Of a DNA stretch of 64,000 nucleotides, positions 1,948 to 63,087 are shown piece after piece; positions within the stretch are counted from its first letter, which is position 1; each line of letters opens with the position of its first letter. The notes under the pieces are model-generated. The model saw only the letters and a list, made by a program, of their open reading frames with translations. It made no database searches and was not told where the DNA came from. A program made the translations under genes and the position numbers. The DNA is from a virus (Duplodnaviria; Caudoviricetes), in the IMG/VR virus record IMGVR_UViG_3300015607_004160; one strand, 5' to 3'.

Positions 1948-1973
1948 TATAGTCCTAAATTTAAAAATTGTTT
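1948..1973 (-). promoter_or_regulatory. Putative middle-class promoter AAAC-N18-TATA
   Basis: Same arrangement recurs upstream of primase, topoisomerase and RNase H genes. Confidence 0.4.
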
Positions 1974-2019
1974 ACTTAAAAAATTAGATACAGAAACTAC
2001 ATATGTTTATATATAACAT

Positions 2020-2799
2020 ATGGAAAAATGGTATGTATATAAACACATAAGAATAGATAAAAATCAAGTTTTTTATATTGGAATAGGATCATCTCCGAAT
2101 TTTGCAAGAGCTTATAGTAAAGATGACAGAAATGATATATGGAAAAAAATAACAAATAAAACGGATTACAAGGTTGAAATTTTATATGAAAATATTTCAT
2201 TTGATGATGCAAAAGATAAAGAAATTCAACTTATTAAAGAATATGGAAAAATTAAAAATGGTGGAACCTTATCCAATATGACAGATGGGGGTGATGGTAT
2301 ATCTGGTTATATACATACGGATGAAACAAAAAAAGTTATAAAAGAAAAAAGAAAATATCAAGTTTTTTCACAAGAAACAAAAGATATATGGTCCAAAAAT
2401 AGAATGGGTAACAAAAAGGCTTTTGGTAAAAAACACTCACCTGAAAAAAATAAAAATAAATCAATAAATCAAAGAGGTAAATTTGGTGGAATAATAATTA
2501 GGACAGATGAAAAAGGAAACTCCATAGAATTCATGGGAATAAAAAATGCTGCTGAATCAATAGGTGTAAGTTATAAAGATATATGGTATGCTTGTATTAA
2601 AAGACACGGTAAGATATATAAAGGATTCTATTGGATGTATAAAGATACAAGGCAACTAAAAAACAATGATGTAATAACAGAAGAATTCTTATATCAAGAG
2701 TATGTTGTTGGTAAAAAATCTGGTGATAAGATAGGAAAGGAATTAAATTGTTCCGGAAATAAAATATATAGACTATTAAAGAAATATAACCTAATGTGA
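2020..2799 (+). CDS. GIY-YIG-type homing endonuclease with NUMOD3/HTH DNA-binding tail
   Basis: YVYKH..FYIGIG..R..E..N catalytic pattern, GYIHTDETKK and GKKHSPE NUMOD-like motifs. Confidence 0.75.
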   Translation: MEKWYVYKHIRIDKNQVFYIGIGSSPNFARAYSKDDRNDIWKKITNKTDYKVEILYENISFDDAKDKEIQLIKEYGKIKNGGTLSNMTDGGDGISGYIHTDETKKVIKEKRKYQVFSQETKDIWSKNRMGNKKAFGKKHSPEKNKNKSINQRGKFGGIIIRTDEKGNSIEFMGIKNAAESIGVSYKDIWYACIKRHGKIYKGFYWMYKDTRQLKNNDVITEEFLYQEYVVGKKSGDKIGKELNCSGNKIYRLLKKYNLM

Positions 2800-3587
2800 T
2801 TAAAATAAAATATTTAGAATTTTTAAAAGAACACAAATTTTGGGGCAAATCTATTTCAGAATTTTTAAGTTGGTTAGATTCAAAATCTAACAAATATTTC
2901 ACAATTTTAGATTGTGAAAGCACAGGATTGCCAAGTGATCCATATGATATACAATTAACACAAGTTTCTTGCTTAGTTGTAAAATATAATTCTAAAACAA
3001 ATACATTCGAAGAGATTGATTCCTTTGATAAAAAAATTAAATTAACATCAGATACTATTTCACTGATGAAGAATCCTAATTCCAGGATAGCAAAAGTTTT
3101 ATCATTTAATCACTATGGTAAATCTGGATTAAAATATCATGAAGAAAAGAATGTACTATCTGAGTTTTTTGATTTTATTTCACAATATGACAGGCCGATG
3201 TTAGTAATTCAAAATGCTGAATTTGATATGAGGTACCTTAATATTAGAAATCCAATAGTCAAATTTGATAATGAGGTTTTAGATACAAAACAAGTTTTAC
3301 AACTATTTTATTTACCAACTTTACAGAAATTGGCTGAAACAGATGAACAAAGTGCTAACACAGTTAGTAAAATTGGAACATCCGAGAGAGATAATGGACT
3401 AATTTCTTCATCTATGGGTAAAATCGGCCCAGCACTTGGTATTAATATGACAGGATACCATGATGCACTTACTGATTGTAGATTGGCAATGCAGATGCTA
3501 CAAAAAATAGTTGATTTCTTAAAAGAGAATAAAGAAGTTGATATAAAGAAATATCAAGGTGAAAGAATAAATACTAAGAGACAGTAG
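2796..3587 (+). CDS. DEDDh 3'-5' exonuclease (N-tag-like start MIKIKYLEFLKE)
   Basis: LDCESTG, QNAEFD, HDALTD motifs. Confidence 0.8.
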   Translation: MIKIKYLEFLKEHKFWGKSISEFLSWLDSKSNKYFTILDCESTGLPSDPYDIQLTQVSCLVVKYNSKTNTFEEIDSFDKKIKLTSDTISLMKNPNSRIAKVLSFNHYGKSGLKYHEEKNVLSEFFDFISQYDRPMLVIQNAEFDMRYLNIRNPIVKFDNEVLDTKQVLQLFYLPTLQKLAETDEQSANTVSKIGTSERDNGLISSSMGKIGPALGINMTGYHDALTDCRLAMQMLQKIVDFLKENKEVDIKKYQGERINTKRQ

Positions 3588-4434
3588 CTTTAATATCACC
3601 TGTAGTAACAACTATAGCTTTTAATTCAAATTTTAATAACATATTTACTATAATATCATCAAATTGACTTTGAGATAATGAGAGTAATTTTTCCTTCTCT
3701 ATAGGTGTGCCATGTCTTTCGCTAGAATATAAAGATCTTCTAGAAGGTGATAATTCTTTTAATTCACTAAATAGATTATCAGAGTCAATGTATATCTCAT
3801 TAATATCTTTATCAAAAAAGAAGTTTTTTATTATTTTTTCTTTTTGTTCTTCAGTAAAATCTAAACTATACATACTAGTTACTCTGCCGAAGATACATAA
3901 ATGAATGTATTTAAAAGATGTTAAAATAAAATCTTTAATACTTTTCATATTTTGTAAAATAGCTAACTTGCCATATCTAGTTTTATGCCATCCATATGAA
4001 AATCTAATAACAAATTCATTGATCTCTGGATCCGGGTCATCCATTTGGCGAAGATCCCATTCATATCCTTGTAAAGGAAACTCTTCATTTGTTATCTTAT
4101 ATAAATAATAATCAATAGCTGCTGTTCTACTAATATTTTCCCTTTCTATTTTTTCTGTGAAATTTGAAACACCATCAACCAACTGATTAACATTTTCTAA
4201 GTCCCATCCATTTTCAGACATATATTCATTTATCTCACTAAAATCTATCTCTGGGTCTAAATCACCTCTATTTTCTTGAGAAACATAACTATAACTACTA
4301 TATGCTCTACTATTTGAATTATGACTAAGGTAATCTTGGCAATCTATTAAAGTTTCACAAAAAATTTTGAAAGCTCTTTCACTAGATAACTTAATAGTAA
4401 TACTCTCAAAGAAAGATTGGTATTTTTTAATCAT
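3574..4434 (-). CDS. Hypothetical protein with N-terminal tag (MIKKYQSFFES)
   Basis: 286-aa ORF with TAATATATA 4 nt upstream. Confidence 0.7.
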   Translation of the reverse strand: MIKKYQSFFESITIKLSSERAFKIFCETLIDCQDYLSHNSNSRAYSSYSYVSQENRGDLDPEIDFSEINEYMSENGWDLENVNQLVDGVSNFTEKIERENISRTAAIDYYLYKITNEEFPLQGYEWDLRQMDDPDPEINEFVIRFSYGWHKTRYGKLAILQNMKSIKDFILTSFKYIHLCIFGRVTSMYSLDFTEEQKEKIIKNFFFDKDINEIYIDSDNLFSELKELSPSRRSLYSSERHGTPIEKEKLLSLSQSQFDDIIVNMLLKFELKAIVVTTGDIKATVS

Positions 4435-4438
4435 ATTC

Positions 4439-4447
4439 TATATATTA
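4439..4447 (-). promoter_or_regulatory. Putative late promoter TAATATATA
   Basis: Recurrent motif just upstream of N-tagged genes; analogous to T4 TATAAATA. Confidence 0.6.
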
Positions 4448-4448
4448 A

Positions 4449-5435: not shown

Positions 5436-5996
5436 TTATTGAATTGTAATTTTTAATTGACTTTCTCCCTTATTAATGTATTCACTATCTGATACAAATA
5501 TTTCCTTTTTTGTGAAATTTTTTAAACGATTAATGATATGTATAGAATTAGTAAGTAACTTAGCATACTCTGGAATATTTATATAATTTTTAATAAAAAT
5601 ATTCATTGATTGATCTCTAAATTCGTATTCAATTTCATACCCCTCATCTAAATAACTCAACAGGCAATCTTCCATTTCATAAAATCTAGGAAATCCTTCC
5701 ATTGCTACACTTATTAATTGAAATAATTGTATTAAGGTTTCTCTTAATTTATAATAAATTCCATCCTCTTCTAATTTACCCTTTACCTCTTTGTAGATTT
5801 TATCAATATTATCTTCTTCCAACTCTATAGATAGCCCAATTTCAGGTAAAATAAGTTCTATCTTTCCTATATTTAGTAATATGTCAGACTGAATATTAAC
5901 AGAAAACCACCTAAACGATAAAACTTCCTTTATCATATCCCTTGTTATAAGTTCTTGATTTTCAGACTCATTAAATTTACTCCACTTTAGTATCAT
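5436..5996 (-). CDS. Hypothetical protein with N-terminal tag (MILKWSKFNES)
   Basis: 186-aa ORF; TAATATATA at 6001-6009. Confidence 0.7.
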   Translation of the reverse strand: MILKWSKFNESENQELITRDMIKEVLSFRWFSVNIQSDILLNIGKIELILPEIGLSIELEEDNIDKIYKEVKGKLEEDGIYYKLRETLIQLFQLISVAMEGFPRFYEMEDCLLSYLDEGYEIEYEFRDQSMNIFIKNYINIPEYAKLLTNSIHIINRLKNFTKKEIFVSDSEYINKGESQLKITIQ

Positions 5997-6000: not shown

Positions 6001-6009
6001 TATATATTA
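6001..6009 (-). promoter_or_regulatory. Putative late promoter TAATATATA
   Basis: 4 nt upstream of ATG 5996. Confidence 0.6.
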
Positions 6010-6011
6010 AT

Positions 6012-9562: not shown

Positions 9563-10642
9563 TTACTGATTTTGTTCTGGTGTTGGTGTCTTCTCACCCT
9601 CTGGTCTAATTAATGCATCAACTTCAGCTATCTTATCTCTTTGGGCAGTTTGTAAAAAGTCTGTATAATTTTTAACTGCTTTTAGTTTATCCTTATCATT
9701 TTTGATGTTCTTTAAATTATTTGTGATTTCTTCAGCAGTTTTATCCTGCTCTTGTGGAGCAGCACCCAAAATATCTTCATATTTTTTCTTAAAGTTAGTA
9801 CCGTCTTCTGCTTTAAATCCAACATTACCTTGATCATCAAGTGTGTCAATTACTTTAGTTCCGACTCTATCTTTTTGTTCTTCGGGTTTCTTGTTTTCAT
9901 CAAATCCATCCATTTTATACATTACCTTTACCTTCTTATCAAAGAATTCTTTTAATTTTTCATAATTCATTGTAGCAACTTGACCACCTCCTTTTTTAAT
10001 TGCTTCATCATATATTTTCTTCATTTCTTCCTCAGTTAATTCCTTATCTAACTGCATTGACATGTCTTTTTGAAAACTATCAAAGAATTTAAAAGATGTA
10101 TCCTGAGCCACTTTTAATTGTTGTGCATCAGCTTTTCCTTTAACCGCATTATTAATGGCTTCTGTATATTTAGTAGATCCGAATTTATAATTTGGATCTG
10201 ATAATAATCCATAAATTCCTTTCCATCCAGCTTCTTTATTACCAATTAAGATAGATTTGGCAACTGCTGCTGCGGCAGATGATTTTCCCTTATCACCTAT
10301 TGCCGAACCAAAATCTTTTCCTATACCTTCTGCCAATTGAGTTAAACTACTCTTAAATTGTTCCATTATACCGATAACATCTGAAACATTTGTAATATTT
10401 TTATCACGAAGTCCCTTCTGAGCAGAATCAATCGCTTGATTTAAATTACTCATTACAATTCCCTTAATAGAATTTGGATCGTCTTCTTTAAAAGATTTTT
10501 TGATATCATCTACCAAATCCTTAAATGGTGCAGAAAAAGTTTGAAAAAGCTTTCCTAAAGCTCCCTTTACTAACTTTCCAATAAATTCCTCATTTATCAT
10601 TTCATGATTTTTATGAGATTCATATGTTTTGATATATTTCAT
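9563..10642 (-). CDS. Hypothetical protein with N-terminal tag (MKYIKTYES..INEE); candidate internal head protein
   Basis: 359-aa helical ORF; TAATATATA at 10659-10667. Confidence 0.75.
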   Translation of the reverse strand: MKYIKTYESHKNHEMINEEFIGKLVKGALGKLFQTFSAPFKDLVDDIKKSFKEDDPNSIKGIVMSNLNQAIDSAQKGLRDKNITNVSDVIGIMEQFKSSLTQLAEGIGKDFGSAIGDKGKSSAAAAVAKSILIGNKEAGWKGIYGLLSDPNYKFGSTKYTEAINNAVKGKADAQQLKVAQDTSFKFFDSFQKDMSMQLDKELTEEEMKKIYDEAIKKGGGQVATMNYEKLKEFFDKKVKVMYKMDGFDENKKPEEQKDRVGTKVIDTLDDQGNVGFKAEDGTNFKKKYEDILGAAPQEQDKTAEEITNNLKNIKNDKDKLKAVKNYTDFLQTAQRDKIAEVDALIRPEGEKTPTPEQNQ

Positions 10643-10713
10643 TATAGTTTTTTATTTCTATATATTAAAATGAAAAACTACAATTTATAATAATATTTAT
10701 TAAATCATTTTCA

Positions 10714-11043
10714 TTATACACTAAAGCTCGAACCACATCCACAAACGCGGGAAGCATTGGGGTTAATCCATTCAAAACCTTTACCATTTAATCCATCCGA
10801 ATAGGTAAGTTCAGTGCCCCATAAGTATAGAATACTTTTTTTATCACAGACAATATTAATAGCACCGTTATCAAATATTTCATCGTGTTCATTTATCTTA
10901 TCATCAAAATCCATTTTATATGATAATCCTGAGCAACCACCACCAGTAACACTAACTCTCAAATTGTGTGTATCGGGAGTAATACCATCACTCATCATTA
11001 ATTCAATAACATGGTCCATCGCTTTTTCACTAATAGTAATCAT
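10714..11043 (-). CDS. iscA: Fe-S cluster assembly A-type carrier (IscA/HesB/SufA)
   Basis: GGGCSGLSY and NPNASRVCGCGSSF. Confidence 0.92.
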   Translation of the reverse strand: MITISEKAMDHVIELMMSDGITPDTHNLRVSVTGGGCSGLSYKMDFDDKINEHDEIFDNGAINIVCDKKSILYLWGTELTYSDGLNGKGFEWINPNASRVCGCGSSFSV

Positions 11044-11354
11044 AATAATATCATATCTAATTTTTTATCTCTCGTGTATGAGTAGAATTTACTATAGGTC
11101 TCACTTTTAAATTTTGATGTAAATTTCTTTTCATATGAAACTTTATATTTATAATTTTTCTTTTCTTTTTTAGTAGAAAAGTCGAAATATCGATTTTCTG
11201 ATATCTCAACAACTACACAGTTATAAAATACGAAATGTCTTTCGGAATGTTTTGAATATTCTATAGTTGATGGTATTTCACATTTCTCCTCAAGAATAAA
11301 GTGAAACATATTATCCTCATATGAAGATCCTATTATATTAAGCTTAGTAGTCAT
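11040..11354 (-). CDS. Hypothetical protein with C-terminal tag (RDKKLDMILL)
   Basis: Start MTTKL overlaps the upstream stop. Confidence 0.65.
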   Translation of the reverse strand: MTTKLNIIGSSYEDNMFHFILEEKCEIPSTIEYSKHSERHFVFYNCVVVEISENRYFDFSTKKEKKNYKYKVSYEKKFTSKFKSETYSKFYSYTRDKKLDMILL

Positions 11355-11636: not shown

Positions 11637-12374
11637 TTATATTTTTTTCATCTTTCTATATATTAATGTATTTGATAAAATTGGTTTATCTTCATTATCC
11701 TCCCATTTAGCAGATATAACTAATTCACCCCCTATCAAACTGACGCTAAAATACTTATTTTTTCCTATGCGAAATGTTGCATATGTATCTTCTATTTTTA
11801 TTGGTTCGACTTCTATCTCGTCATCTCCATCAAAATTTTTCATTGATTTCACAAAATCAAATCTCTCATTACCTTTATAATATTCTTTTTTTAAGAGTTT
11901 TAAAAATGGATCATGAATCTTTAAAACCTCATTTTTTCTAACACCAAATACATCCTTCCATTTGAATCCCAATGTTATATGTAAGTCCATTTCTGGAAGA
12001 CCAAATATCTTTCTTAGCTCCTGCAAATCATCAGACTTAACTACGACAAAATATGTCCTATTTTCATTTCTTTCAGCTGTTCCAACCCCCATTAAATTAA
12101 TTTCAAATTCAGTATCAAAGTATTTTTCTAATGAATTAATAAATTTATCAAATCCAACTTCTTTTGATATTTTGTTATATTCCATAACATTGATGACAGT
12201 TATATGATGCTTACCATGGTCCCTATTAGACTGATTGGTTATATAGGTATCATAATCATCTTCTAATATTTCTTCTAATTGAGATAGGTAAGGTGTTACT
12301 ATATCAGTATAGATATTAACTCCTATATAATTATTACCGACTATATCTTTTAAATATTCTAATCTTACTTTCAT
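11637..12374 (-). CDS. 2H phosphoesterase family protein
   Basis: Two HxT motifs: HHITV and LHITL. Confidence 0.75.
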   Translation of the reverse strand: MKVRLEYLKDIVGNNYIGVNIYTDIVTPYLSQLEEILEDDYDTYITNQSNRDHGKHHITVINVMEYNKISKEVGFDKFINSLEKYFDTEFEINLMGVGTAERNENRTYFVVVKSDDLQELRKIFGLPEMDLHITLGFKWKDVFGVRKNEVLKIHDPFLKLLKKEYYKGNERFDFVKSMKNFDGDDEIEVEPIKIEDTYATFRIGKNKYFSVSLIGGELVISAKWEDNEDKPILSNTLIYRKMKKI

Positions 12375-12817
12375 TTTCCTTTAAATTTTAATTTACCGAC
12401 TACTAAGGCAGGAGTAGTATACAATAATTTTTTTAATTTACCTATATATCTTTTATCAGATATTAATATTTCAAAATCTAGAGATTCACTATCTTTTGAT
12501 AGACCAATATAAGCGGATTCGAATCCATAGTCTTTACCCATACCCTCTATTTCAGCTATTGCGTATTTGCTAATATCAACGGTTTTAAATTTTCGTTTTG
12601 AGTCTGATCTAAAACTATCTAATACATAGTCAACTGCTGCTAATATACTATTAAATTTTTCTTCCTTTCCATTATAATTTCCAACTACAGATACCTTAGT
12701 TATCTTTCTTCGTATATCTCCTATAAAATTGGTTAATCTGTGATCAGCTAAATCCTTTGTTAAGGCCGACGCAACTTTACTAGCACTAAATAACTCATTG
12801 AACTTTTTAATTTTCAT
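12371..12817 (-). CDS. Hypothetical protein with N-terminal tag (MKIKKFNE)
   Basis: AAATATATA at 12823-12831. Confidence 0.7.
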   Translation of the reverse strand: MKIKKFNELFSASKVASALTKDLADHRLTNFIGDIRRKITKVSVVGNYNGKEEKFNSILAAVDYVLDSFRSDSKRKFKTVDISKYAIAEIEGMGKDYGFESAYIGLSKDSESLDFEILISDKRYIGKLKKLLYTTPALVVGKLKFKGK

Positions 12818-12833
12818 AGGATTATATATTTAA

Positions 12834-14843
12834 TTAAAATCCATTATTTTTTAACCAAACGATAAAATCATGAGCATATAAATGTTTTTTACCTTCATAT
12901 TTGCTATCGGTTCCTTTTATTCCATATAAACCATACCCTGGATCAGAAAGTTTCATTTTTTTATGTTCTTCTATTACTCTTTCCTTTAATGACCTATCCC
13001 TAGTATTATTAGCTGAAATTATATTAAAATTTCTTTCATCAATATTAAAATCACATACTTTAGTCCATGTTTTTGTTAGAACCGACATTTGTTTATTTAA
13101 ACTATAAAAGTCTTTTCCACTTGTATTATTTGGGTGTTTTCTACCAAGAGGTTCCGGCTTTTGAGTACATATAATATAATCTTTAGTTTCCATAACTATC
13201 GCCCTTGACCCAACTTGAAATCCTAGACTTTCTAAGTATTCATCATTTAATTGTTTATCTTCTTCATAGTTATACTTATCATTGACCATCATTCTAATAT
13301 TTAACACCTTGTCTGAATATTCTAATTTACCATTATCACAATAGACTGTAATAGTTTTTATTTCTTTTATTCCTTTTAACCTGTTCATAACTTGTTGAAT
13401 ATCAGAATAGAAACTAGCAGATTTTAAAAACTCAATGTGATTCGAATACCCAACTGGTAATCCATATCCTTTAAGTGACATGGTAAAGTAGTAGTTGTTA
13501 TCAGCATAATCGTTAGTTTTGGTATCATTTAGATATAAATTGTAAGTTCCCTGAGCAAATTCACTACGAGGAGGTGCTTTACTCAAACTATCAGTTACAT
13601 ATAAAAAAGCATCTTCAATTTCGGATAATAAGGCATATTTATCTATTTCCTTTGGTATATCATATTCACCAACTCCATATTTATTCAGGAATTTTTTTGC
13701 AAATTCTACATTTCCTTCTCTTTCCTTCTCTTCCTCTTCATGTTCCATAATATCTTTACATATTTCAATAGCTCCATCTATATAAGATTGGTCAAATTTA
13801 GTTATACCAAGCCTTGTTCTTTTTTCATCACTTAACATAGCATATATGTTTGATGAAGAAGATATTGGGTAATAAGCATGATATGGTTCTTTGTATTCTT
13901 CTGGTTGTTTACCAGTTCTCTCTGCATATAGATTTTTAATTATTTGATCAATATCTATATCTAAATCATCATCATCTTCCACATCGTCAGATATCAAATT
14001 TTGGTCTTTTATTTTACCCAAAAACATACTTTTCCATTTTTCTTTTTCAGCTTTTTCTTTGTCCTCTCTTTCCTTTTTAAGCTTAGAAATATGTTGATTT
14101 GCCGCATCAATAGTCATGGCAACTTGGGGTATATTTAATATTCTATTTACAACCTCTTGTATTTGTGGGGCAAATTTTGCATTTTGCCAATCTCCATATC
14201 CTGCCAGGTCTTGGTCTGCACCACCTGCTTCTTCTATGATAAATCCATCTTTATTCCATCCATACCCTGTTCCTATAGTACATAATAGGTTATCTGATAT
14301 GGATCTTCTATTAGAATAAAGAGATTTATATTTATAATTAGGATCTAGTTTAATTTCAACCCAATCTTCAAGTGTTTTGTTAATCTTTAACATCTTCTTT
14401 TCTAGTTCACTCAGTGGTTTGCCATTTTTAATTAAATTAAAAAATGTTTTACTGTCTTTAACATTATCTCTACCATTGGTAACATGCATCGCCCACGCAT
14501 CATAGATTAGATTTTCTATTTCATTGTTTTGGGGATTACACATTTCAATTTTATATTTAGGATTATCTTCACAATCCCAATAACCGGTTTCCTCACCATC
14601 TTCATCTGTAGTTGTAGCTCCATCTCTAAGAATGCCATCACCTCCCCAACAAACTCTACCATCATACCATAAGGTATTATACATATATCCTAGCTTGGCT
14701 AATTGTGGTAAATTCTCTGATTGAGTTAGGTACTCTTGATTTTCCCTAATACAAATAAGTATAGGATCAATTACATTTTCCTCAAATTTGAAATGTTTGT
14801 CATTGACGAAACTTTCATATGTTTTAACTATTTTCTTTGCCAT
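12834..14843 (-). CDS. Large hypothetical protein with N-terminal tag (MAKKIVKTYES)
   Basis: C-terminal ~270 aa is paralogous to the upstream ORF. Confidence 0.75.
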   Translation of the reverse strand: MAKKIVKTYESFVNDKHFKFEENVIDPILICIRENQEYLTQSENLPQLAKLGYMYNTLWYDGRVCWGGDGILRDGATTTDEDGEETGYWDCEDNPKYKIEMCNPQNNEIENLIYDAWAMHVTNGRDNVKDSKTFFNLIKNGKPLSELEKKMLKINKTLEDWVEIKLDPNYKYKSLYSNRRSISDNLLCTIGTGYGWNKDGFIIEEAGGADQDLAGYGDWQNAKFAPQIQEVVNRILNIPQVAMTIDAANQHISKLKKEREDKEKAEKEKWKSMFLGKIKDQNLISDDVEDDDDLDIDIDQIIKNLYAERTGKQPEEYKEPYHAYYPISSSSNIYAMLSDEKRTRLGITKFDQSYIDGAIEICKDIMEHEEEEKEREGNVEFAKKFLNKYGVGEYDIPKEIDKYALLSEIEDAFLYVTDSLSKAPPRSEFAQGTYNLYLNDTKTNDYADNNYYFTMSLKGYGLPVGYSNHIEFLKSASFYSDIQQVMNRLKGIKEIKTITVYCDNGKLEYSDKVLNIRMMVNDKYNYEEDKQLNDEYLESLGFQVGSRAIVMETKDYIICTQKPEPLGRKHPNNTSGKDFYSLNKQMSVLTKTWTKVCDFNIDERNFNIISANNTRDRSLKERVIEEHKKMKLSDPGYGLYGIKGTDSKYEGKKHLYAHDFIVWLKNNGF

Positions 14844-15683: not shown

Positions 15684-16871
15684 TTATAACATTCGTTTAA
15701 ATTTTTCTATTTCTAATCTTTTAATTTCTGCACCTAGCTGGGCGCCTTGAAATCCCTTATCCATTAACTTTTTTGAATCAACAGATGGTTTATATTTTAA
15801 AAATGCCATATGAATCTTATCTGATATGTTATTAACTTTATACCAGTCTAGTATCACATCATCAGAAACCCTAGCGATTTGTTTTTTCTTGTAAAGGTCA
15901 ATTACATTATTAATATCTAAATTAATTAGGGATATCAAGAATACAATTTTTCTTGCCATATCTACTTCAATCTTAAATTTTTGAACAAGTTTATTTAACA
16001 ATTTATCTGGGTTGTTATTAATTAGTATATTAGATAAATAAACTTCTAAAAATTTAGAGTCTTTAATATCTTCATTGATATTAACTCCTGGTAAAATTTG
16101 AGGCCACATATTATATTCATTTAATAGTGTTAAATAAATAGAAAAATTTTTACATTGGGCAAACGATTTTTTAACTTCATCCCATATTCTTTCTGCTGAT
16201 ACATCTTCTTTTGGACCAACACCTATTAGTCTATTATCTGATTTTATAGCATCTGAAGTCTGTTTGTCAATTTTTCCATTTGATCTGGCAGTAAATCTAA
16301 AAATACGGCAAATTCTTAATCTATCTTCCTTGAATCTCTCAATGGGATTTCCAACTGCTTTAATAACATTATTTTTTATATCATTAACACCACCAACAAT
16401 ATCTACAATTTCCTTTTTTTCTATATTATAAAATAAAGCATTAATAGTAAGATCCCTTCTCATACAATCGTCCTCTATCGTTATATGATTACCCATTTCG
16501 ACCTTTTGATCATTCCCTTTTGTATCCCTACCCATAGATATATCCTTTCTATAAGATGCAATTTCATAGCCATTTGGCTCATCTTTTGTATAGACTCTTA
16601 TCACACCAAAATTTTTACCTTGCTCATCAGATACATTAAATTCGTTTAATATTTTTTTGGACTCACTCGGCAATGCGTTTGTAACTAAATCATAATCCTT
16701 TGGTGTTTTACCTTGTAGAAAATCCCTGACAGCCCCACCTACAACAAATATATTTTTTCCATTTTTTATATACTGATTTGAGATATTAATTATATCATAT
16801 GGTAAGGGCATTTCTATTTTAATAGAATTATTTTCTAGTAAAAAATCTTTATAATTTTTAATTTTTTTCAT
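15684..16871 (-). CDS. cca: tRNA nucleotidyltransferase (CCA-adding)/poly(A) polymerase family, N-tagged
   Basis: VGGAVRD..DYD, RRDLTINAL, EDRLRICR; starts MKKIKNYKDFLLEN. Confidence 0.88.
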   Translation of the reverse strand: MKKIKNYKDFLLENNSIKIEMPLPYDIINISNQYIKNGKNIFVVGGAVRDFLQGKTPKDYDLVTNALPSESKKILNEFNVSDEQGKNFGVIRVYTKDEPNGYEIASYRKDISMGRDTKGNDQKVEMGNHITIEDDCMRRDLTINALFYNIEKKEIVDIVGGVNDIKNNVIKAVGNPIERFKEDRLRICRIFRFTARSNGKIDKQTSDAIKSDNRLIGVGPKEDVSAERIWDEVKKSFAQCKNFSIYLTLLNEYNMWPQILPGVNINEDIKDSKFLEVYLSNILINNNPDKLLNKLVQKFKIEVDMARKIVFLISLINLDINNVIDLYKKKQIARVSDDVILDWYKVNNISDKIHMAFLKYKPSVDSKKLMDKGFQGAQLGAEIKRLEIEKFKRML

Positions 16872-17728: not shown

Positions 17729-17812
17729 TATATATTAAATTTCATTACCGGAAAAGTCGAATAGTTCTAAATGGATCTTTTATTTAAAATATACGTAAAA
17801 ATTTAATATATA
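17729..17812. promoter_or_regulatory. Divergent pair of putative late promoters TAATATATA
   Basis: 17729-17737 (-) and 17804-17812 (+). Confidence 0.55.
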
Positions 17813-46843: not shown

Positions 46844-46884
46844 ACTTAGTTGATAAATTTTTTTATAAATTAAAAATCATTTTA

Positions 46885-47231
46885 ATGGCCAAAGGCAAAT
46901 CAACAGCTAAATACATACACTCAGCAGGGATTTCCAATAATACCTCAGTGACATCAACTTATAATGGGGCACATTGATATATAATGGATCGTCAATAGGA
47001 TGGACTATACTTAAGTCTAAGTATATTATTTTAAATAGGGAAATTGAGGTAGAAGGTGATAAGGATTTTAATGTAGCATTATGTGTTTCACTGATAAATA
47101 CACTTGGAATAGAATATTATATCGAATTAAAAAAACAAGAAGTAAGTCTTCCCAAAGAAATTGATGATTTTTTAGAAAAGGAAATTGTTTCTTATTATAG
47201 AAATAAGACAATAGATGAAATCATGAAATAA
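46885..47231 (+). CDS. Hypothetical protein with C-terminal tag (RNKTIDEIM); apparent missing G at ~46967
   Basis: ATG 46885 frame (MAKGKST..) joins the 46974 frame if one G is added to the G-run. Confidence 0.6.
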
Positions 47232-48264: not shown

Positions 48265-48793
48265 TAACTTACACGGAGAAGAAACCTTTGCTGAGTTTGT
48301 AATTAATAATAAAGAAAGTATCTTGAAAAGATGCACAAATACATTTCTTAAATCTACAAATAGTATATCAGGTAGTAAAGTTGAAAAAATCACTAGGTAT
48401 AATGTAGACTTGATTCGCAAATGGGGGTCAGCAATTAGCATCAATAGTTTATCAACCGACTTTACTGAAACACTTTGCTTTTTTTGTGAGGTGCTATCAC
48501 TTTATGATGAAAGATGTAAAATGAGTATGTCATATAATATTATTAATATAGATAATGAGCTAAAATTAGTATATGAAAGAATATCAAAATATAAACATAG
48601 GTCAAAGATTGTTGATAAATACTATAATTATCATACCGGTAAAACTGAATATCTATTGCAAGATGGATCATTTGTTCCAACGGGTGGTGTTCCCCCAACT
48701 ATAAATATGAATTATAAATATTTCCCAACTGAATTCTTACCTTTATTGGATGAATCAGAGTATAGAAATGCTAAAATAGACCAGATATTATGA
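48245..48793 (+). CDS. Hypothetical protein with C-terminal tag (RNAKIDQIL)
   Basis: 182-aa ORF. Confidence 0.7.
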   Translation: MNLINHNNLHGEETFAEFVINNKESILKRCTNTFLKSTNSISGSKVEKITRYNVDLIRKWGSAISINSLSTDFTETLCFFCEVLSLYDERCKMSMSYNIINIDNELKLVYERISKYKHRSKIVDKYYNYHTGKTEYLLQDGSFVPTGGVPPTINMNYKYFPTEFLPLLDESEYRNAKIDQIL

Positions 48794-49020
48794 CTAAAGT
48801 AGAACTGTATAAATACTATGATGTTGAAAACATAATTGGGGCAGATTCTATTATCTTTAAAATAACCTCAAAGTATGATAAAAGTGAGTATTATTTTACT
48901 TTTAATGCGTCTGAAATTCATGATTTTGTCGAGGATGGAACAATTTCAGAAAATATTTTAAATATGATTAGTGTATTAAGATCTGGTATAAGAAATTCTA
49001 GAATAGATCAAATTATATGA
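48790..49020 (+). CDS. Hypothetical protein with C-terminal tag (RNSRIDQII)
   Basis: 76-aa ORF. Confidence 0.65.
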   Translation: MTKVELYKYYDVENIIGADSIIFKITSKYDKSEYYFTFNASEIHDFVEDGTISENILNMISVLRSGIRNSRIDQII

Positions 49021-50323: not shown

Positions 50324-50615
50324 AGAATGTTTAATTCACTGGTCTTCAATCGGACGTGATTTTAAAAGTTACTTTCTTTTGGAGGAAAAAATATATGAAT
50401 TGAAGGTTTCTTTACCACTACGTATTGATAATGAGAAAGATGCAATAGAATGGATTAAAAATCTAGTAAGCTTTTCAAATGAAATAACACTTATTGAATT
50501 GCTAAATAATGAGGATAAAATAATGACAGAGACTAATCTTTTTAAAAAAAGAGTATCATTACTTATAAAAAAAGAAAGAGATAAAAAAATAAACACAATA
50601 ATAAATGGAAAGTAA
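50301..50615 (+). CDS. Hypothetical protein with C-terminal tag (RDKKINTII)
   Basis: 104-aa ORF. Confidence 0.65.
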   Translation: MQKSQINKECLIHWSSIGRDFKSYFLLEEKIYELKVSLPLRIDNEKDAIEWIKNLVSFSNEITLIELLNNEDKIMTETNLFKKRVSLLIKKERDKKINTIINGK

Positions 50616-51138: not shown

Positions 51139-51425
51139 GAAAAGAAGATTTAGAATTTTTTGAAAAATTAATAGGTGACTTAAATGCTGGATTCGGTAAG
51201 GAATATAATCTATTTGCATGTGAAGAAGGTATTAAAATATCCGAAGCGTTAAAAACCAAAGAAAAAATAATTGAGTTTCACAAATCTACATGGGAAGTCC
51301 AAAAAGAAATGGTGCCAACTATTGATGATGGCCACTCTGGGAATACATTTGGGTTGGCTTGTAAATTAGCCATTGCTTATATACCAATGATAAGAGATAA
51401 AAAAATTGATATTATAATAACTTAA
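51135..51425 (+). CDS. Hypothetical protein with C-terminal tag (RDKKIDIII)
   Basis: GHSGNTF motif; 96 aa. Confidence 0.7.
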   Translation: MRKEDLEFFEKLIGDLNAGFGKEYNLFACEEGIKISEALKTKEKIIEFHKSTWEVQKEMVPTIDDGHSGNTFGLACKLAIAYIPMIRDKKIDIIIT

Positions 51426-52168: not shown

Positions 52169-52170
52169 TT

Positions 52171-52179
52171 TAATATATA
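52171..52179 (+). promoter_or_regulatory. Putative late promoter TAATATATA
   Basis: Upstream of 52197. Confidence 0.55.
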
Positions 52180-52196: not shown

Positions 52197-52502
52197 ATGA
52201 AAAAATATCAAACTAATGATGGTTCTATAAATGAGAGCAAGGCTGAATTAAGCTTACTAAATAATTTGTTGGATTTTTACATATCAAAATACGCTTCTTC
52301 TTCAATAGAAGAGACTGAACAACACTTTCTAAATGCTCTTGGATCTTTGGTTGATAGAGGTGAAATTGATGAAAGGGTAGTTAAAGAATTTTTAGATGAT
52401 AAAGGAATCGAAGGTGATATTCCCAAATATCAACCAAAATCTCATAATTCTTCTTCTAATTATGATCCTTGTGGAAGAACTTCTTATAATTCTCACTGTT
52501 AA
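52197..52502 (+). CDS. Small protein with Ser/Asn-rich, Cys-terminated tail
   Basis: Ends SHNSSSNYDPCGRTSYNSHC. Confidence 0.7.
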   Translation: MKKYQTNDGSINESKAELSLLNNLLDFYISKYASSSIEETEQHFLNALGSLVDRGEIDERVVKEFLDDKGIEGDIPKYQPKSHNSSSNYDPCGRTSYNSHC

Positions 52503-57103: not shown

Positions 57104-57149
57104 GTAGTATATATCTTTTTGAATTTTACAAAATACGAAAATAAAAGTT

Positions 57150-57158
57150 TAATATATA
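57150..57158 (+). promoter_or_regulatory. Putative late promoter TAATATATA
   Basis: Upstream of the 57179-58892 operon. Confidence 0.55.
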
Positions 57159-57530: not shown

Positions 57531-58607
57531 ATGATTAGAAGATATTACGAGTATCTTTTGGAAAGTTCACCTGGCATAGATCTAAAGTATTTAGCACTAG
57601 ATTGGGATGATAATATTCTACATATGCCAACCTTTATTCACTTAGACCATCTAGTAGATGGTGAATGGGTGCATGAGCCTGTTTCCACTGCGAAGTTTGC
57701 GACTGTTAGAAATGATAAAGTAAACTGGAGGTACAGAGATGATTCATTTTCCGAATTTAGAGATTTTGGGCCTAGAGGTGAAACAGCTTTCCTTGAAGAC
57801 ACCATTTCTGCTATAAATAATGGAGATTTTGGACCTAGTTGGGATGCATTTATTGAATATTTATCTCAAGGCACTATCTTTGCTATAATTACAGCAAGAG
57901 GGCATGAACCAAATGCAATTAAAATGGCAGTAGAATATATTATAGATAATATATTAACTGAAAATCAAAAACATAGTTTATATGCACATTGTTTAAAGTT
58001 TGCATATTTATTTGGAGCTGATTATGACTCATATGATAGAATACCAAGAGGACAGCTTAGTAAAACCAAACTAATTCAAGACTATTTAAATAGTTGTGAT
58101 TATTATGGAGTTTCCTCTAATTTCTGTATTAAGAAATTTGGATTAGGCGATGCTGGCAATCCAGAAAAAGGAAAAGAAATGGCAATTAAAGAATTTACTA
58201 AACAAGTAAATGAATTTGGTCAAAAAATTGGTGCTAAAAGTGTTTCCCTAGGATTCTCTGATGATGATGTTAAAAATGTTAAACACATTGAAAAACTATT
58301 TAGAGATGAATTATCATTAAAATATTTAATCAATTATAATATTTATGATACATCCAAAAGAGAAATAAAAGGTGGGGTTAGAACTAAAATAGATCCTCAA
58401 GTAGTAGAATCAACAACATCTTGGGGGAATGGTGCTGGAACTTGGGGAACAGATAGTAGTGTTATTCCATTCACAAAATGGAATAACATGACTCAAAATC
58501 TTTATCCAAATAGCAAAGATTTTTCAAATGATGATTATCATAATCAATTTAAAAATCAGATAGGTCAATTAAAAGATCTAACCGTTGTAGATAAAAAAAA
58601 AGTATAA
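57531..58607 (+). CDS. HAD-superfamily-like protein with N-terminal tag (MIRRYYEYLLES)
   Basis: LDWDDNI, IITARGH, K, GFSDDD..N. Confidence 0.7.
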   Translation: MIRRYYEYLLESSPGIDLKYLALDWDDNILHMPTFIHLDHLVDGEWVHEPVSTAKFATVRNDKVNWRYRDDSFSEFRDFGPRGETAFLEDTISAINNGDFGPSWDAFIEYLSQGTIFAIITARGHEPNAIKMAVEYIIDNILTENQKHSLYAHCLKFAYLFGADYDSYDRIPRGQLSKTKLIQDYLNSCDYYGVSSNFCIKKFGLGDAGNPEKGKEMAIKEFTKQVNEFGQKIGAKSVSLGFSDDDVKNVKHIEKLFRDELSLKYLINYNIYDTSKREIKGGVRTKIDPQVVESTTSWGNGAGTWGTDSSVIPFTKWNNMTQNLYPNSKDFSNDDYHNQFKNQIGQLKDLTVVDKKKV

Positions 58608-58610: not shown

Positions 58611-58892
58611 ATGAGAAACATTCTAAAATTCGAAGGTTTCGTAAAAGAAAACTACGAAATAAAAGAGGAACTAAACGTGGATGAAACAAAAGTTTCACAT
58701 TCTTCTTTAGATGATTTAATTAAACAACTTTCTGAATTACAGAATGTTTATGATATAAATGATTTAAAATCAATGAATGATACACAATTAAAGAATTTAT
58801 ATAGTGAGGTTTTAAATGCTAAAGAAGAAGATTCTAAATCCGAAATTGAACCAACTTCTGAGTTAGAATATGAGTCTAAAAGTTGGAAATAA
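58611..58892 (+). CDS. Hypothetical protein with N-terminal tag (MRNILKFEGFVKEN)
   Basis: 93-aa ORF. Confidence 0.7.
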   Translation: MRNILKFEGFVKENYEIKEELNVDETKVSHSSLDDLIKQLSELQNVYDINDLKSMNDTQLKNLYSEVLNAKEEDSKSEIEPTSELEYESKSWK

Positions 58893-60894: not shown

Positions 60895-60903
60895 TATATA
60901 TTA
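60895..60903 (-). promoter_or_regulatory. Putative late promoter TAATATATA
   Basis: 7 nt upstream of ATG 60887. Confidence 0.6.
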
Positions 60904-60924
60904 AAAATACCATCGAAAAAAAAA

Positions 60925-61281
60925 TTATTTTAAAATTTCTTTTAACTTATTATCTCTATCTACATCAGTTGGTGGAGATAGCCAATAAATATTTTTATTT
61001 TCTGTCCATACTGGAAAATATTTACTTTCTAAAATTCGTCTTCTACTGTAATCTGACTTATTAAATGGTGTAGTTATAACTTTTATTTTTGATAATAACT
61101 TATCACAATAAACCTCCTTTACTTCAATAATTACATTATAGTTTCCATAATTTCCGTTATTTGGTGTTATTACGGTAATTGCTGGTTTTGTTGATGTATC
61201 ATAGCCTACTTTTAGAAAAAGAAGTCCAATTCTTTTATCTTTAATATTATCGACAAATCCACTTCGTCTAAATAAACTCAT
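60925..61281 (-). CDS. Hypothetical protein with C-terminal tag (RDNKLKEIL)
   Basis: 118-aa ORF. Confidence 0.7.
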   Translation of the reverse strand: MSLFRRSGFVDNIKDKRIGLLFLKVGYDTSTKPAITVITPNNGNYGNYNVIIEVKEVYCDKLLSKIKVITTPFNKSDYSRRRILESKYFPVWTENKNIYWLSPPTDVDRDNKLKEILK

Positions 61282-61589: not shown

Positions 61590-62485
61590 ATTTGGTTATT
61601 ATTATATTTTTCTAAAAAGTCTACAACGTAGTTATCATTAACAAACTCTTTTATTTTAAAGAAATAATCGGTTGCAAATTGTCGAAACCATCCAGAACAT
61701 AAGTTAGTGCATATCCTCATTAATGCCCATTCTAATGCTTCGTTTGATGAAACCCAACTTGCTTTCCCAAAGATACCAGGTAACACTTTTCTTTCAAGTG
61801 CAATGACATAGGCTTCTTCTAATACACATTTACATTTGTTTTCAAATGAAAATCTATTCCACATATCTTTTTCACATTTAGCAATAGTTATATCCCTCTG
61901 CATATTTAAATACAGTGGTTTATCATAATGTGCAACTGCTTTATGAATATCATCGTGAATGAAATAAGATTTAACAAACCCCTTTGATTGTCCGAAAAAT
62001 TCAGTAATTGGTTTATTTAAAGATGGCGTTTTTAACTTACCAAGCCTTTCTTCGGTTTCTTTATAACGTAGTTTAGTAATATTATCTAAATAATCTCCTC
62101 CTAATTTTTCATTTAAAAAGGTATAGTCAACAATATGCTTATTAAATTTAATAGGGAAATGTATATGACTTTTCTTTAGAGAAAGTAAAACCTCTAAGGA
62201 AGCCCATTTTAATCCACGATCACTAGAATCAAAATCAAGGTATAACCGGAGTGAGCTGGACTCATCTGCAATTAGAACCTCTACATTTTCAGTATCGTAG
62301 AATGCTGACTTATTTTGAATTCCAATTAGTGAGGTGATACCATCTCCTTCCTTAATTTTTGATGGGTTTAATGTGCTAATCAAATATTGTAAATCAGATT
62401 TATATCCGATTAAATCAATATCCTTAACCTTCCTATTTAAAGATGGATAATGGTATGTAAGTGCTTTTGATCCAATAATTAACAT
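61571..62485 (-). CDS. Phage nucleotidyltransferase-like protein
   Basis: IIGS..DID (pol-beta NTase pattern); LKKSH, HDDIH, EEAYVIALER. Confidence 0.6.
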   Translation of the reverse strand: MLIIGSKALTYHYPSLNRKVKDIDLIGYKSDLQYLISTLNPSKIKEGDGITSLIGIQNKSAFYDTENVEVLIADESSSLRLYLDFDSSDRGLKWASLEVLLSLKKSHIHFPIKFNKHIVDYTFLNEKLGGDYLDNITKLRYKETEERLGKLKTPSLNKPITEFFGQSKGFVKSYFIHDDIHKAVAHYDKPLYLNMQRDITIAKCEKDMWNRFSFENKCKCVLEEAYVIALERKVLPGIFGKASWVSSNEALEWALMRICTNLCSGWFRQFATDYFFKIKEFVNDNYVVDFLEKYNNNQICRIKE

Positions 62486-62496
62486 AATATTATTTT

Positions 62497-62760
62497 TTAA
62501 TCATAAGATGATTCTTCACCATCCTCATAAGAAGACTCATATGAATCATAGGATTGTTCCTCATATGACATTTCATCATCATAATTTAGAAGATTATCAA
62601 TATTGAGAATTTTATCAGATACATCAACATCCAAATTTGACTTCGCAGCTTCTTCTAATAACTGTGATAATTGAAATTGAGCATCACTGTGTGAAATGCT
62701 TTTTTCCCGGCACATTTCTAATATACGGGATAGTTTTTTGTAGAAATCTACTATATTCAT
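62497..62760 (-). CDS. Hypothetical protein with Ser/Tyr/Glu tail
   Basis: Ends SYEEQSYDSYESSYEDGEESSYD. Confidence 0.65.
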   Translation of the reverse strand: MNIVDFYKKLSRILEMCREKSISHSDAQFQLSQLLEEAAKSNLDVDVSDKILNIDNLLNYDDEMSYEEQSYDSYESSYEDGEESSYD

Positions 62761-62766
62761 ATTTAT

Positions 62767-63012
62767 TTATTTTAAAATATCATCAATTATATGTTTTCTA
62801 AAATCTCCTTTGCTTATGAATCGACTATAATGATATGCTTGCCCGACTTTTATATCATTTATGACACATATCCAAAAATTTTCATCACCTGAATATACTT
62901 CAAGTGAATCAATTATATACTCTTTACCAACCGTTAAACTAGAACGATTATTTAAAATACAAATAACCTTTTCTCCTACGACAAATCCCTTATGTTCTTT
63001 TATTTCACCCAT
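62767..63012 (-). CDS. Hypothetical protein with C-terminal tag variant (RKHIIDDIL)
   Basis: 81-aa ORF. Confidence 0.65.
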   Translation of the reverse strand: MGEIKEHKGFVVGEKVICILNNRSSLTVGKEYIIDSLEVYSGDENFWICVINDIKVGQAYHYSRFISKGDFRKHIIDDILK

Positions 63013-63019
63013 ATAAACA

Positions 63020-63050
63020 CAAATATAATAACTTTTTGTAAAATTACAAA
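63020..63050 (-). promoter_or_regulatory. Bacteroidota-type (early) promoter
   Basis: TTTG, 19-nt spacer, TATATTTG. Confidence 0.7.
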
Positions 63051-63087
63051 ATCAAACTTACAATAATATATTCACTATATGAATTAG

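Follow-up and report, generated by a model that had tools for sequence, protein, structure and literature searches.

In phage T4, internal proteins are basic and the protease follows the cleavage rule (L/I)-x-E. [quoted passage not shown] The prohead protease cleavage motifs reported for the giant phages SPN3US and phiKZ also end in Glu (AXE, SXE; PMC5694885). In phiKZ-like phages (SPN3US, 201phi2-1), the prohead protease removes N-terminal propeptides from ejection and inner-body proteins by cleaving at (S/A/G)-x-E, and SPN3US gp47, an inferred ejection protein, has a transmembrane segment after its cleaved propeptide (PMC5694885).

The window (the whole 64,000-nucleotide stretch analysed here, IMG/VR record IMGVR_UViG_3300015607_004160) comes from a huge phage of 29% GC whose early promoter is of Bacteroidetes type. 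Whole-genome tests used LR756502.1, a complete 642-kb relative with 980 ORFs. In this relative and the uncultured window phage, more than a quarter of all proteins carry one of two terminal tags. The N-tag consensus consists of M-K-[YH]-[IL]-K-x-[YF], a spacer of 0-3 residues and E-[S/N/G/A], and its carriers are diverse, mostly orphans and a few enzymes. The C-tag has the consensus R-[DN]-x-K-[IL]-x-x-[IL]-[ILG], then 0-7 residues, on small, mutually unrelated carriers. This looks like a hitherto undescribed proteome-wide addressing scheme; a published description of such a two-tag scheme was not found in the literature, and what is new is the association with promoter class, as tested here.

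The N-tag resembles the T4 CTS in its length of about 10 residues, its place at the extreme N-terminus, its MK start, aromatic residue and final Glu, and its unrelated late carriers. It differs in having about 130 carriers in the 642-kb genome compared to 3-5 in T4, in its acidic carriers, some of them enzymes or membrane proteins, and in being 2-4 residues longer (MKHLKxYKIFES); its packaging and cleavage are putative. PhiKZ-like leaders are comparable in that many head proteins have cleavable N-terminal leaders ending in Glu and some cargo is transmembrane or enzymatic, but these propeptides are mostly >100 residues with no single short common motif (PMC5694885). At the sequence level, phiKZ-like phages are unrelated to the window clade.

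Shared C-terminal recognition tails are known from ssrA/ClpX and MuA degrons, clamp-binding tails and encapsulin cargo-loading peptides. As in those systems, where the tail is read by one partner, the C-tag is a conserved short peptide at the C-end of dissimilar proteins. vWA-MoxR-linked peptide-processing systems have C-terminal peptides as well (PMC7159879). The core R-[DN]-x-K-[IL]-x-x-[IL]-[IL] is unlike ssrA/MuA, clamp tails, encapsulin peptides and vWA-MoxR peptides, and its distance to the C-end ranges from 0 to 7 residues, unlike that of degrons read via the free carboxylate. T4 temporal promoters comprise an early sigma-70 type, a MotA-dependent middle type and a late type (TATAAATA/gp55), and here too there are three motif classes: host-type, a bipartite AAAC-N18-TATA heading replication genes, and an AT-rich single box heading head genes. 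Differences from T4 are the host-type box, which is the Bacteroidetes -7 element TAnnTTTG (PMC9723704, PMC6847099), and the many units predicted to be leaderless.

Terminal placement and exclusivity of the tags

About 18 window ORFs begin M-K-[YH]-[IL]-K-x-[YF]..E-[SN], or 13 when the tag is profile-defined:

4402..4434, minus, N-tag MIKKYQSFFES, ORF 3574-4434; late motif 4 nt upstream
5964..5996, minus, N-tag MILKWSKFNES, ORF 5436-5996
10613..10642, minus, N-tag MKYIKTYESH, ORF 9563-10642; 13.1 bits at residue 1
12788..12817, minus, N-tag MKIKKFNELF, ORF 12371-12817
14805..14843, minus, N-tag MAKKIVKTYESFV, ORF 12834-14855; second Met probably true start
16830..16871, minus, N-tag MKKIKNYKDFLLEN, CCA-adding/poly(A) polymerase-family enzyme 15684-16871; Pfam domain from residue 41
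17819..17863, plus, N-tag with core VRKFESF, ORF 17819-18277
25437..25460, minus, short N-tag MKYIKPFF, P-loop kinase-like ORF 24888-25460; 5.9 bits
25889..25918, minus, N-tag MKYIKYYESK, DUF7448 protein 25457-25918
33031..33069, plus, N-tag MKHLKSYSQHNEG, PQ-loop membrane protein 33031-33690
37906..37935, plus, N-tag MKYLKKFNES, DUF5661 protein 37906-38136; 17.8 bits
38133..38162, plus, N-tag MKYLRKYNEN, ORF 38133-39674
43864..43899, minus, weak N-tag MKKFSDIIINES, ORF 43390-43899; by eye only
45314..45349, plus, N-tag MKVYKYSELFEA, ORF 45314-46843; body similar to cyanophage proteins from about residue 113
52197..52238, plus, weak N-tag MKKYQTNDGSINES, ORF 52197-52502; by eye only
57531..57566, plus, N-tag MIRRYYEYLLES, ORF 57531-58607
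58611..58643, plus, N-tag MRNILKFEGFV, ORF 58611-58892; 7.9 bits
60822..60854, minus, N-tag-like ILKFDNFLLES, 11 residues into DnaJ-zinc-finger-like ORF 58938-60887

About 16-18 window ORFs terminate in the C-tag core:

11043..11072, minus, C-tag RDKKLDMILL, ORF 11040-11438, start probably Met29; exception, within a late-motif unit
27878..27907, minus, C-tag RDIKIDDVIK, conserved 585-aa early protein
29695..29730, minus, looser C-tag REIGIDEIIDNQ
30092..30127, minus, looser C-tag RDYVISKLLENE
31517..31552, minus, doubtful C-tag NRREFNLEILSR, by eye only
33668..33709, minus, C-tag RDKKIDVIL + 5 residues
33915..33950, minus, C-tag RELKINILNDK
35355..35384, minus, C-tag RDNQLTKILN; 10.3 bits
42560..42592, plus, C-tag RDIKIENIINE, gene downstream of topoisomerase II large subunit
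44426..44461, minus, C-tag EREIKINLLF, kept in the L051 orthologue
47199..47228, plus, C-tag RNKTIDEIMK
48764..48790, plus, C-tag RNAKIDQIL
48991..49017, plus, C-tag RNSRIDQII
50577..50612, plus, C-tag RDKKINTIINGK
51393..51422, plus, C-tag RDKKIDIIIT
60928..60957, minus, C-tag RDNKLKEILK; 12.2 bits
61281..61310, minus, C-tag RDEKIKIILK
62770..62799, minus, looser C-tag RKHIIDDILK

The C-ends of the NusG-like protein (50605-51138) and ClpP (56438-57103) were rejected as C-tags, each being its own family's normal end.

The pattern R[DNE]x[KR][ILV]xx[ILV][ILMV] occurs 10 times in the window at <=8 residues from a C-end and not once at internal positions among 20,054 residues, and of the matches to the N core, 10 lie among the first 20 residues and 7 elsewhere. 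Both tags are recovered by an unsupervised motif search, and with profiles trained only on another phage the top 7 N and top 10 C matches in the window are all terminal. LR756502.1 has 131 N-tagged ORFs (about 13% of its proteome; 5.3 expected at N-ends) and 148 C-tagged ORFs (about 15% of the phage proteome; 1.9 expected at C-ends).

The sequence-only reading held that no ORF has both tags, and none does in the window, where 2.5-4.4 were expected (P 0.003-0.046, or 0.003-0.05 when rounded; a modest significance). As this support is weak, the proposed test was run on the whole of LR756502.1, in which two doubly tagged ORFs, both weak or doubtful, compare with 19.8 expected (P=3.5e-8).

Tag class and promoter class

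Every promoter position of the sequence-only reading is present, 30480 as a variant of host-type TAnnTTTG; together with sites at 11657, 37872 and 22306 they are:

4439..4448, minus, late-type promoter motif TTAATATATA
6001..6010, minus, late-type motif
10659..10668, minus, late-type motif
11657..11666, minus, late-type motif preceding ORF 11344-11628 and C-tagged exception 11040
12823..12833, minus, late-type motif TTAAATATATA
17729..17738, minus, late-type motif heading 16858 to 12834
17803..17812, plus, late-type motif
27189..27198, minus, late-type motif, 5 nt before likely true start 27183 of 26731-27237; heads 25457, 24888
33017..33026, plus, late-type motif
37872..37882, plus, late-type variant TTTTATATATA
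44417..44426, minus, late-type motif
45298..45308, plus, late-type variant
52170..52179, plus, late-type motif
57149..57158, plus, late-type motif
60895..60904, minus, late-type motif
22306..22313, minus, host-type TATCTTTG preceding vWA-metallopeptidase gene
29652..29659, minus, host-type CGTATCTTTG
30480..30487, minus, host-type variant TATCTTTA
31986..31993, minus, host-type CGTATCTTTG
35599..35606, minus, host-type CGTATCTTTG
63020..63027, minus, host-type TATATTTG
40351..40382, plus, AAAC-N18-ATAATATATA preceding topoisomerase II large subunit
46842..46870, plus, AAAC-N18/19-TATAAA
47246..47273, plus, AAAC-N18-TATATA preceding 47287-48264; LR756502.1 orthologue has same promoter class

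All N-tagged genes of the window (13 profile-defined to 18) lie behind the TTAATATATA-type late motif, as had been claimed. The 16 C-tagged genes, said to follow mostly host-type or AAAC-N-TATA promoters, divide into 8 behind the host-type motif TTCGTATCTTTG, about 7 of AAAC/TATA type or unclear, and 11040, the one clear exception, whose unit has a late motif. Fisher P ranges from 2e-7 to 6e-5 with the treatment of ambiguous genes. Statistics for both the promoter link and mutual exclusivity are far stronger in complete LR756502.1 than in the window. The genome-wide Fisher test of tag against upstream motif found the association at the level of units, with late motif AATATATA upstream of 58/79 N units vs 2/70 C units (P=1.3e-20), the host-type motif upstream of 2/79 vs 15/70 and AAAC-N17-19-TATAWW upstream of 3/79 vs 12/70. 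At gene level, late/host/other counts are 90/3/36 for N and 4/40/102 for C (P=1.7e-35). A recognisable host-type motif precedes only about 30% of C-tag units, 102/146 C-tagged genes fall in the 'other' class, and 4 C-tagged genes of LR756502.1 lie within late-motif units.

Spacing from late motif to ATG is bimodal (4-8 nt, 18-28 nt); many units, in which the motif ends 4-8 nt 5' of the ATG, would lack a leader. We infer 'early' and 'late' genes from the motifs alone. As TATATA-type motifs also precede topoisomerase II and primase or primase-like genes, the phage-type promoter class may be a mixture of middle and late.

Putative fates of the tagged proteins

The best explanation, to which we give about an even chance, is that of two terminal labels following the transcription programme, with an N-tag akin to the T4 CTS and a C-tag serving as a handle. 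The window would come from a clade of huge phages, with early promoters of Bacteroidetes type, in which much of the proteome bears one or the other of two short terminal peptides as a label that tracks transcription. The N-tag would dock late proteins to the prohead core as the T4 CTS does, and the head maturation protease would then cleave it after the conserved Glu, so that the phage would ship a large protein kit with its DNA. The C-tag would be a terminal helix and the common handle for one reader, which could help to remove early and middle proteins at set times or to localise them. The tags would be mutually exclusive because these fates belong to different infection phases.

Beyond exclusivity and the promoter link, which stand, the capsid interpretation of the earlier reading gains real, indirect support. 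An N-tag profile from LR756502.1, trained only on the huge phage, places gp61.1, IPI, IPII and IPIII as N-terminal matches 1-4 of 282 T4 ORFs; apart from gp61.1, no T4 N-terminus ranks above those of the internal proteins. In 110/131 LR756502.1 N-tags a Glu stands after the aromatic residue and is itself followed by S/N/G/A; P3 is I/L/Y/F. The head module has N-tagged genes on its flanks, adjoining portal and head genes, and the late motif directly precedes portal, head maturation protease, major head protein and large terminase in LR756502.1. The protease, which is from the relative and not the window, matches phrog_207 (E=6e-28) and scores 22.7 bits against Pfam S77, under cut-off. CTS likeness, the final Glu and small residue, the promoter common to head genes and this protease homologue indirectly support the N-tag as a putative capsid-targeting, cleavable leader.

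Alternatively, the N-tag could be a handle for another late machine (Hsp70/DnaJ chaperones encoded by the phage, delivery to the membrane or a stability signal at the N-terminus), with a convergent or superficial CTS likeness. N-tagged proteins are acidic (median pI 5.5), unlike the basic T4 internal proteins. Among them are the PQ-loop membrane protein and several others that have a hydrophobic segment directly behind the tag, although SPN3US gp47 too has a transmembrane segment (PMC5694885), and a cargo of 13% of all proteins would, to our knowledge, far exceed any known case. Some LR756502.1 ORFs start like Hsp70 and DnaJ (recognised by eye), the window encodes the N-tagged DnaJ-zinc-finger-like protein, and the top T4 match, gp61.1, is not a known head protein and is not known to be packaged. 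Set against the ranks of the three T4 CTS carriers, the conserved Glu and small residue, and the promoter and gene neighbourhood shared with head genes, such a handle appears rather unlikely.

Peptide-level selection on both tags

Both tags are maintained by peptide-level selection. Without the tag, 116/129 N-tagged and 140/146 C-tagged proteins of LR756502.1 have no BLASTP relative in their own set; termini are conserved and bodies are not, which implies a function of the termini. Descent from two fast-diverging paralogous families, tandem-duplicated in late and early blocks, would explain exclusivity and promoter link with no addressing, and it fits the long tandem arrays of tagged genes, the predominance among them of small orphans lacking Pfam matches, the MK[VL]xC[IV] start common to several LR756502.1 C-tagged proteins and the fact that remote homology is invisible to BLASTP. 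We nevertheless consider it improbable, as both tags sit on unrelated known folds (CCA-adding enzyme, PQ-loop, DUF7448, DUF5661, NADAR, SET and GNAT for the N-tag; riboflavin kinase, BtpA and the 585-aa multidomain protein for the C-tag), and orthologues of the 585-aa protein retain the C-tag down to 40% identity, even without the last domain. In the AF2 model of this protein, residues 572-584 lie in a terminal helix.

That the tags are by-products of nucleotide signals (the N-tag of a promoter or leaderless-start element, the C-tag of the A-rich initiation region of the next overlapping gene) is very improbable: ATGAAATATATA encodes MKYI and resembles the promoter motif, many C-tags share nucleotides with the start codon that follows, TGA stops reach 30% in tagged genes vs 16.5% overall and tag codons have a mild third-position A excess, but C-tag Arg codons follow genome usage (AGA 105 vs 104.7 expected; CGT 10 vs 10.1), N-tags mix TCN and AGY Ser codons and varied Ile/Leu codons, 60/131 N-tagged genes of LR756502.1 have no promoter inside 60 nt and are internal to units, so that the N-tag is not a leaderless-start feature, and C-tags also close units without a following gene (27875, 33665, 46974, 48790, 60925).

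Two terminal peptides and their carriers

Two short peptides shared by many ORFs were recovered from ORF ends and by an unsupervised motif search (86 window ORFs; first 25 and last 18 residues). The N-tag reads M-K-[YH]-[IL]-K-x-[YF], with a Glu 1-4 residues on and then S/N, and the C-tag reads R-[DN]-x-K-[IL]-x-x-[IL]-[IL], near the stop. In the window, the strict C pattern was found 10 times at C-ends and at none of ~19,000 internal positions. The N core occurred 10 times within the first 20 residues versus 7 times elsewhere, and the N-tags are positioned at residues 1-14. In LR756502.1, a complete 642-kb uncultured relative (all 642,428 bases, 980 ORFs called), the N pattern stands at the N-end of 131 ORFs versus 5.3 expected from the internal rate, starting at residue 2 in 110 of the 131. 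The C pattern stands at the C-end of 148 ORFs versus 1.9 expected, with 0-7 residues following the 9-residue core (one residue in 77/148). A search of the huge-phage literature found no description of the C-tag or the N-tag.

Apparent C-tags on a NusG-like protein (50605-51138) and on ClpP (56438-57103) were dropped because they are the normal ends of their families, as in E. coli NusG and ClpP. Alternative C-terminal codes in other clades (NYPNSIV, KTKKTKF) were also rejected, as the neighbours of the NYPNSIV orthologue in L050 keep the standard tag. Away from the termini, the C-tag profile has its second-best match (6.2 bits) in a 185-aa ORF (6941-7498, + strand), at residues 103-113; this could represent two former genes that have fused, or a miscalled frame.

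Both tags are modular. With the tags removed, 116 of 129 N-tagged and 140 of 146 C-tagged proteins of LR756502.1 were singletons within their own set (BLASTP, E<=1e-5), and the carriers probably do not form a whole-protein paralogous family, as most have no BLASTP similarity outside the tag. The N-tagged proteins of LR756502.1 are mostly orphans, together with NADAR, SET, GNAT, PQ-loop and glycosyltransferase domains, and those of the window include a CCA-adding-type enzyme, DUF7448, DUF5661 and a PQ-loop protein. C-tagged proteins in LR756502.1 are small (median 116 aa) and nearly all orphans. In a conserved C-tagged early protein of 585 aa, the tag sequence RDIKIDxIIK is kept in homologues down to 40% identity on contigs of up to 770 kb. 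Forms of this protein without the last domain still carry the C-tag at their end; other forms have unrelated ends. The tag forms the terminal helix in an AF2 model of the protein. No Pfam match was found for the 585-aa protein, a PDB profile search returned coiled-coil matches only, the AF2 model had no Foldseek match at E<=0.001, and a peptide-pattern search of viral_contigs found no match.

Codon choice and gene position favour a peptide rather than a nucleotide signal for both tags. The invariant Arg of the C-tag follows the codon usage of the genome, Ser in the N-tag is encoded by codons of both families, and six different codons occur at the Ile/Leu position. Almost half of the N-tagged genes lie inside a unit, and C-tags are also found at the end of units that have no gene behind them. 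C-tags show slightly more A-ending codons and TGA stops than expected, which is explained by overlap with the next start.

Promoter classes and their relation to the tags

Every promoter position proposed in the sequence-only reading was found in the window, including the host-type box and three AAAC-N18/19-TATA sites. The motif TTAATATATA and its close variants occur 29 times, mostly in the few percent of non-coding DNA and 4-30 nt before a start codon. In LR756502.1, a motif of this type lies directly upstream of the portal, head maturation protease, major head protein and large terminase genes, which justifies the name late-type. N-tagged genes have the motif in common with these head genes and may be expressed late along with them. 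Similar TATATA boxes are also found ahead of topoisomerase and primase-like genes, so that this phage-type class would include more than late genes. In LR756502.1, the spacing between TAATATATA and the ATG is sharply bimodal, at 4-8 nt (~100 genes) and 18-28 nt (~55 genes), a pattern that points to fixed transcription starts and to leaderless messages for many, probably most, late units.

An extended CGTATCTTTG box recurs in the window at 6036, 6928, 22306, 24686, 29652, 31986 and 35599, 4-41 nt ahead of starts. These boxes correspond to the Bacteroidetes sigma-A -7 element, TAnnTTTG, located just upstream of the transcription start (PMC9723704, PMC6847099), and a Bacteroidetes host for the window phage is likely on this ground. 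The third class, AAAC-N18-TATA, is also found in LR756502.1 ahead of the orthologues of window genes 40401 and 47287 and is thus real.

The earlier claim was that the two tags exclude each other and that tag class follows promoter class. Tag sets for the window were defined by profiles trained on another phage, LR756502.1, so that they were not picked by eye, and comprised 13 N-tagged and 16 C-tagged ORFs with an overlap of 0. All 13 N-tagged genes, and five more with tags seen by eye, lie behind a late-type motif, directly or via an upstream gene of the same unit. Among the 16 C-tagged genes, 8 are host-type, about 7 are AAAC/TATA-type or unclear, and one belongs to a late-motif unit. This last gene (11040-11438, - strand), already suspected as an exception, is indeed the second in a unit whose start lies 29 nt downstream of a TTAATATATA. 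Based on crude, gap-based units, which in the window merged those with internal promoters and were resolved by eye, tag class and promoter class were associated with a Fisher P of 2e-7 to 6e-5, depending on the treatment of ambiguous genes. Exclusivity also held in the window, at modest significance: no ORF carries both tags versus 2.5-4.4 expected, with P only 0.003-0.046.

The upstream neighbour of the exceptional gene, ORF 11344-11628 (- strand), has an acidic repeat at its end, which ORF 11040-11438 covers in another frame that is rich in Met, Lys and Arg. For the C-tagged gene, Met29 is the probable start, at which it would overlap with the end of ORF 11344-11628.

Across the whole of LR756502.1 both parts of the claim were borne out. 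Two ORFs carry both tags, each with a weak N match, versus 19.8 expected (P=3.5e-8). When genes were grouped into units by strand and gap size, a crude definition, AATATATA was found upstream of 58/79 N units versus 2/70 C units (Fisher P=1.3e-20), and the host-type box showed the opposite bias (2/79 N units versus 15/70 C units). AAAC-N17-19-TATAWW preceded 12/70 C units, 35/272 untagged units and 3/79 N units, and control patterns reached 4/70 or less. At the level of genes, the N-tagged set comprised 90 late, 3 host and 36 other, versus 4 late, 40 host and 102 other in the C-tagged set (P=1.7e-35 for the split).

Possible fates of the tagged proteins

The N-tag resembles the T4-type capsid targeting sequence (CTS) in being a short peptide (10-20 aa) at the extreme N-terminus of unrelated protein bodies, and is also like MKTYQEFIAE and MKTFKEF of T4 in sequence. 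The former is the T4 CTS, which receives a single cut by the prohead protease (PMC8442874). A profile built only from LR756502.1 N-tags and scanned over 282 T4 ORFs returned gp61.1, IPI, IPII and IPIII as the best four N-terminal matches. Every known T4 CTS carrier is therefore in the top four, with IPI, IPII and IPIII at ranks 2, 3 and 4, although their absolute scores are low (7.4, 2.8 and 1.7 bits). The best match, above IPI, is a 54-aa hypothetical protein (gene 61.1, NC_000866 18966-19130) starting with MKTFKEFIKE; gp61.1 thus has a CTS-like start.

N-tags of LR756502.1 have Glu at the end in 110/131 cases, S/N/G/A after it and I/L/Y/F two residues before. Prohead protease cleavage motifs of SPN3US and phiKZ also have Glu at the end (PMC5694885). 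These sequence features hint at removal of the N-tag after Glu by a gp21-type prohead protease. A head maturation protease is encoded in LR756502.1 (phrog_207, E=6e-28; Pfam S77 at 22.7 bits, below the cut-off of 27) and none was found in the 64-kb window. Portal and head genes in LR756502.1 are flanked by N-tagged genes. Counting against the capsid reading, the N-tagged proteins are acidic, and capsid cargo on such a scale is, to our knowledge, without precedent. The objection raised by membrane proteins is softened by gp47 of SPN3US, an inferred ejection protein in which a transmembrane segment follows a propeptide that is cleaved off (PMC5694885).

The position of the C-tag relative to the C-end varies, which argues against a carboxylate-anchored (ssrA-like) degron, whose motif would be fixed at the very C-end. 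Tags of the ssrA type end in AA, and the C-tag is without likeness to them. The C-tag profile had no terminal match in T4, and ARAGORN, used to look for a tmRNA whose tag is similar to the C-tag, detected none in LR756502.1. One window gene is a candidate for the reader of the C-tag, following a lead from PMC7159879:

20738-22279, - strand: vWA-metallopeptidase, early gene with a host-type box; Pfam DUF2201_N and DUF2201

This protein combines HExxH, a Gly/Gln-rich linker that contains two CxxCxGxG motifs of the DnaJ type, and a vWA domain whose DxSxS MIDAS motif is complete. Its conservation is unusually high: the best 120 of its 1812 homologues are 64-100% identical, on contigs of up to 817 kb, and its gene is syntenic with the gene of the C-tagged 585-aa protein. 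A complex prediction of the vWA-metallopeptidase with the last 45 residues of the 585-aa protein, Mg and Zn gave a score of 0.00, which is evidence neither way.

Perhaps, although we consider it rather unlikely, over a quarter of all proteins in a whole clade of huge Bacteroidetes phages are sorted by a late, capsid-loading N-leader and an early C-helix read by a single hub, both tied to the transcription programme. About 1 in 8 proteins would then be late and enter the capsid by way of an enlarged T4-like leader, so that enzymes and orphan effectors would be injected ready for use. About 1 in 7 would be early and end in a helix recognised by one hub, of phage or host, that would remove or localise the early set at the programme switch. 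If the N-tag loads the capsid, some hundred different proteins would be delivered with the phage DNA, changing the view of the first minutes of huge-phage infection and providing a simple sequence rule for finding candidate injected anti-defence proteins and enzymes in metagenomes. The C-tag would define a second hub, handling the entire early proteome. As both tags are easily recognised, they are useful for annotation, where they could fix true start and stop sites and indicate the likely temporal class of hundreds of orphan genes in uncultured phages.

Gene content of the window and its relatives

The window has a G+C of 29% and is densely coding on both strands. At the DNA level, only two relatives were found among deposited phages, both uncultured (642 and 635 kb), and near-identical contigs are present in many metagenomes. 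An exact 50-mer had no match in viral_contigs. One ORF, judged by eye to be EF-G-like on account of a GTPase motif at its N-terminus, has a 72% DNA match to LR756502.1. ClpP, a rhomboid protease and topoisomerase II subunits were identified from Pfam labels on near-identical or syntenic contigs, and a thioredoxin-reductase-like ORF by eye only. The CCA-adding-type enzyme and the vWA-metallopeptidase are likewise encoded in the window. ORF 9563-10642 had no match in a tblastn search against phages.

At the left end of the window, adjoining sugar-nucleotide genes, ORF 2020-2799 (+ strand) has a GIY-YIG-like start (YVYKH...FYIGIGS) and a TTTATATATA box upstream, and is probably a homing endonuclease. 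The region 42588-43386 (+ strand) has an N-terminal sequence like that of a DNA methyltransferase (SPPY motif) and is divided between two ORFs that overlap (42588-42821 and 42805-43386), pointing to a frameshift or a disrupted gene. Topoisomerase II genes of more distant relatives (L051 5413-9946, L052 2083-6616) have Pfam intein-splicing matches and an extra ORF between the gene pieces; the window copies (36526-37869 and 40401-42239) are apparently uninterrupted. In LR756502.1, 46 tRNA genes predicted by ARAGORN are clustered at 373-424 kb, several of them with long inserts of variable size.
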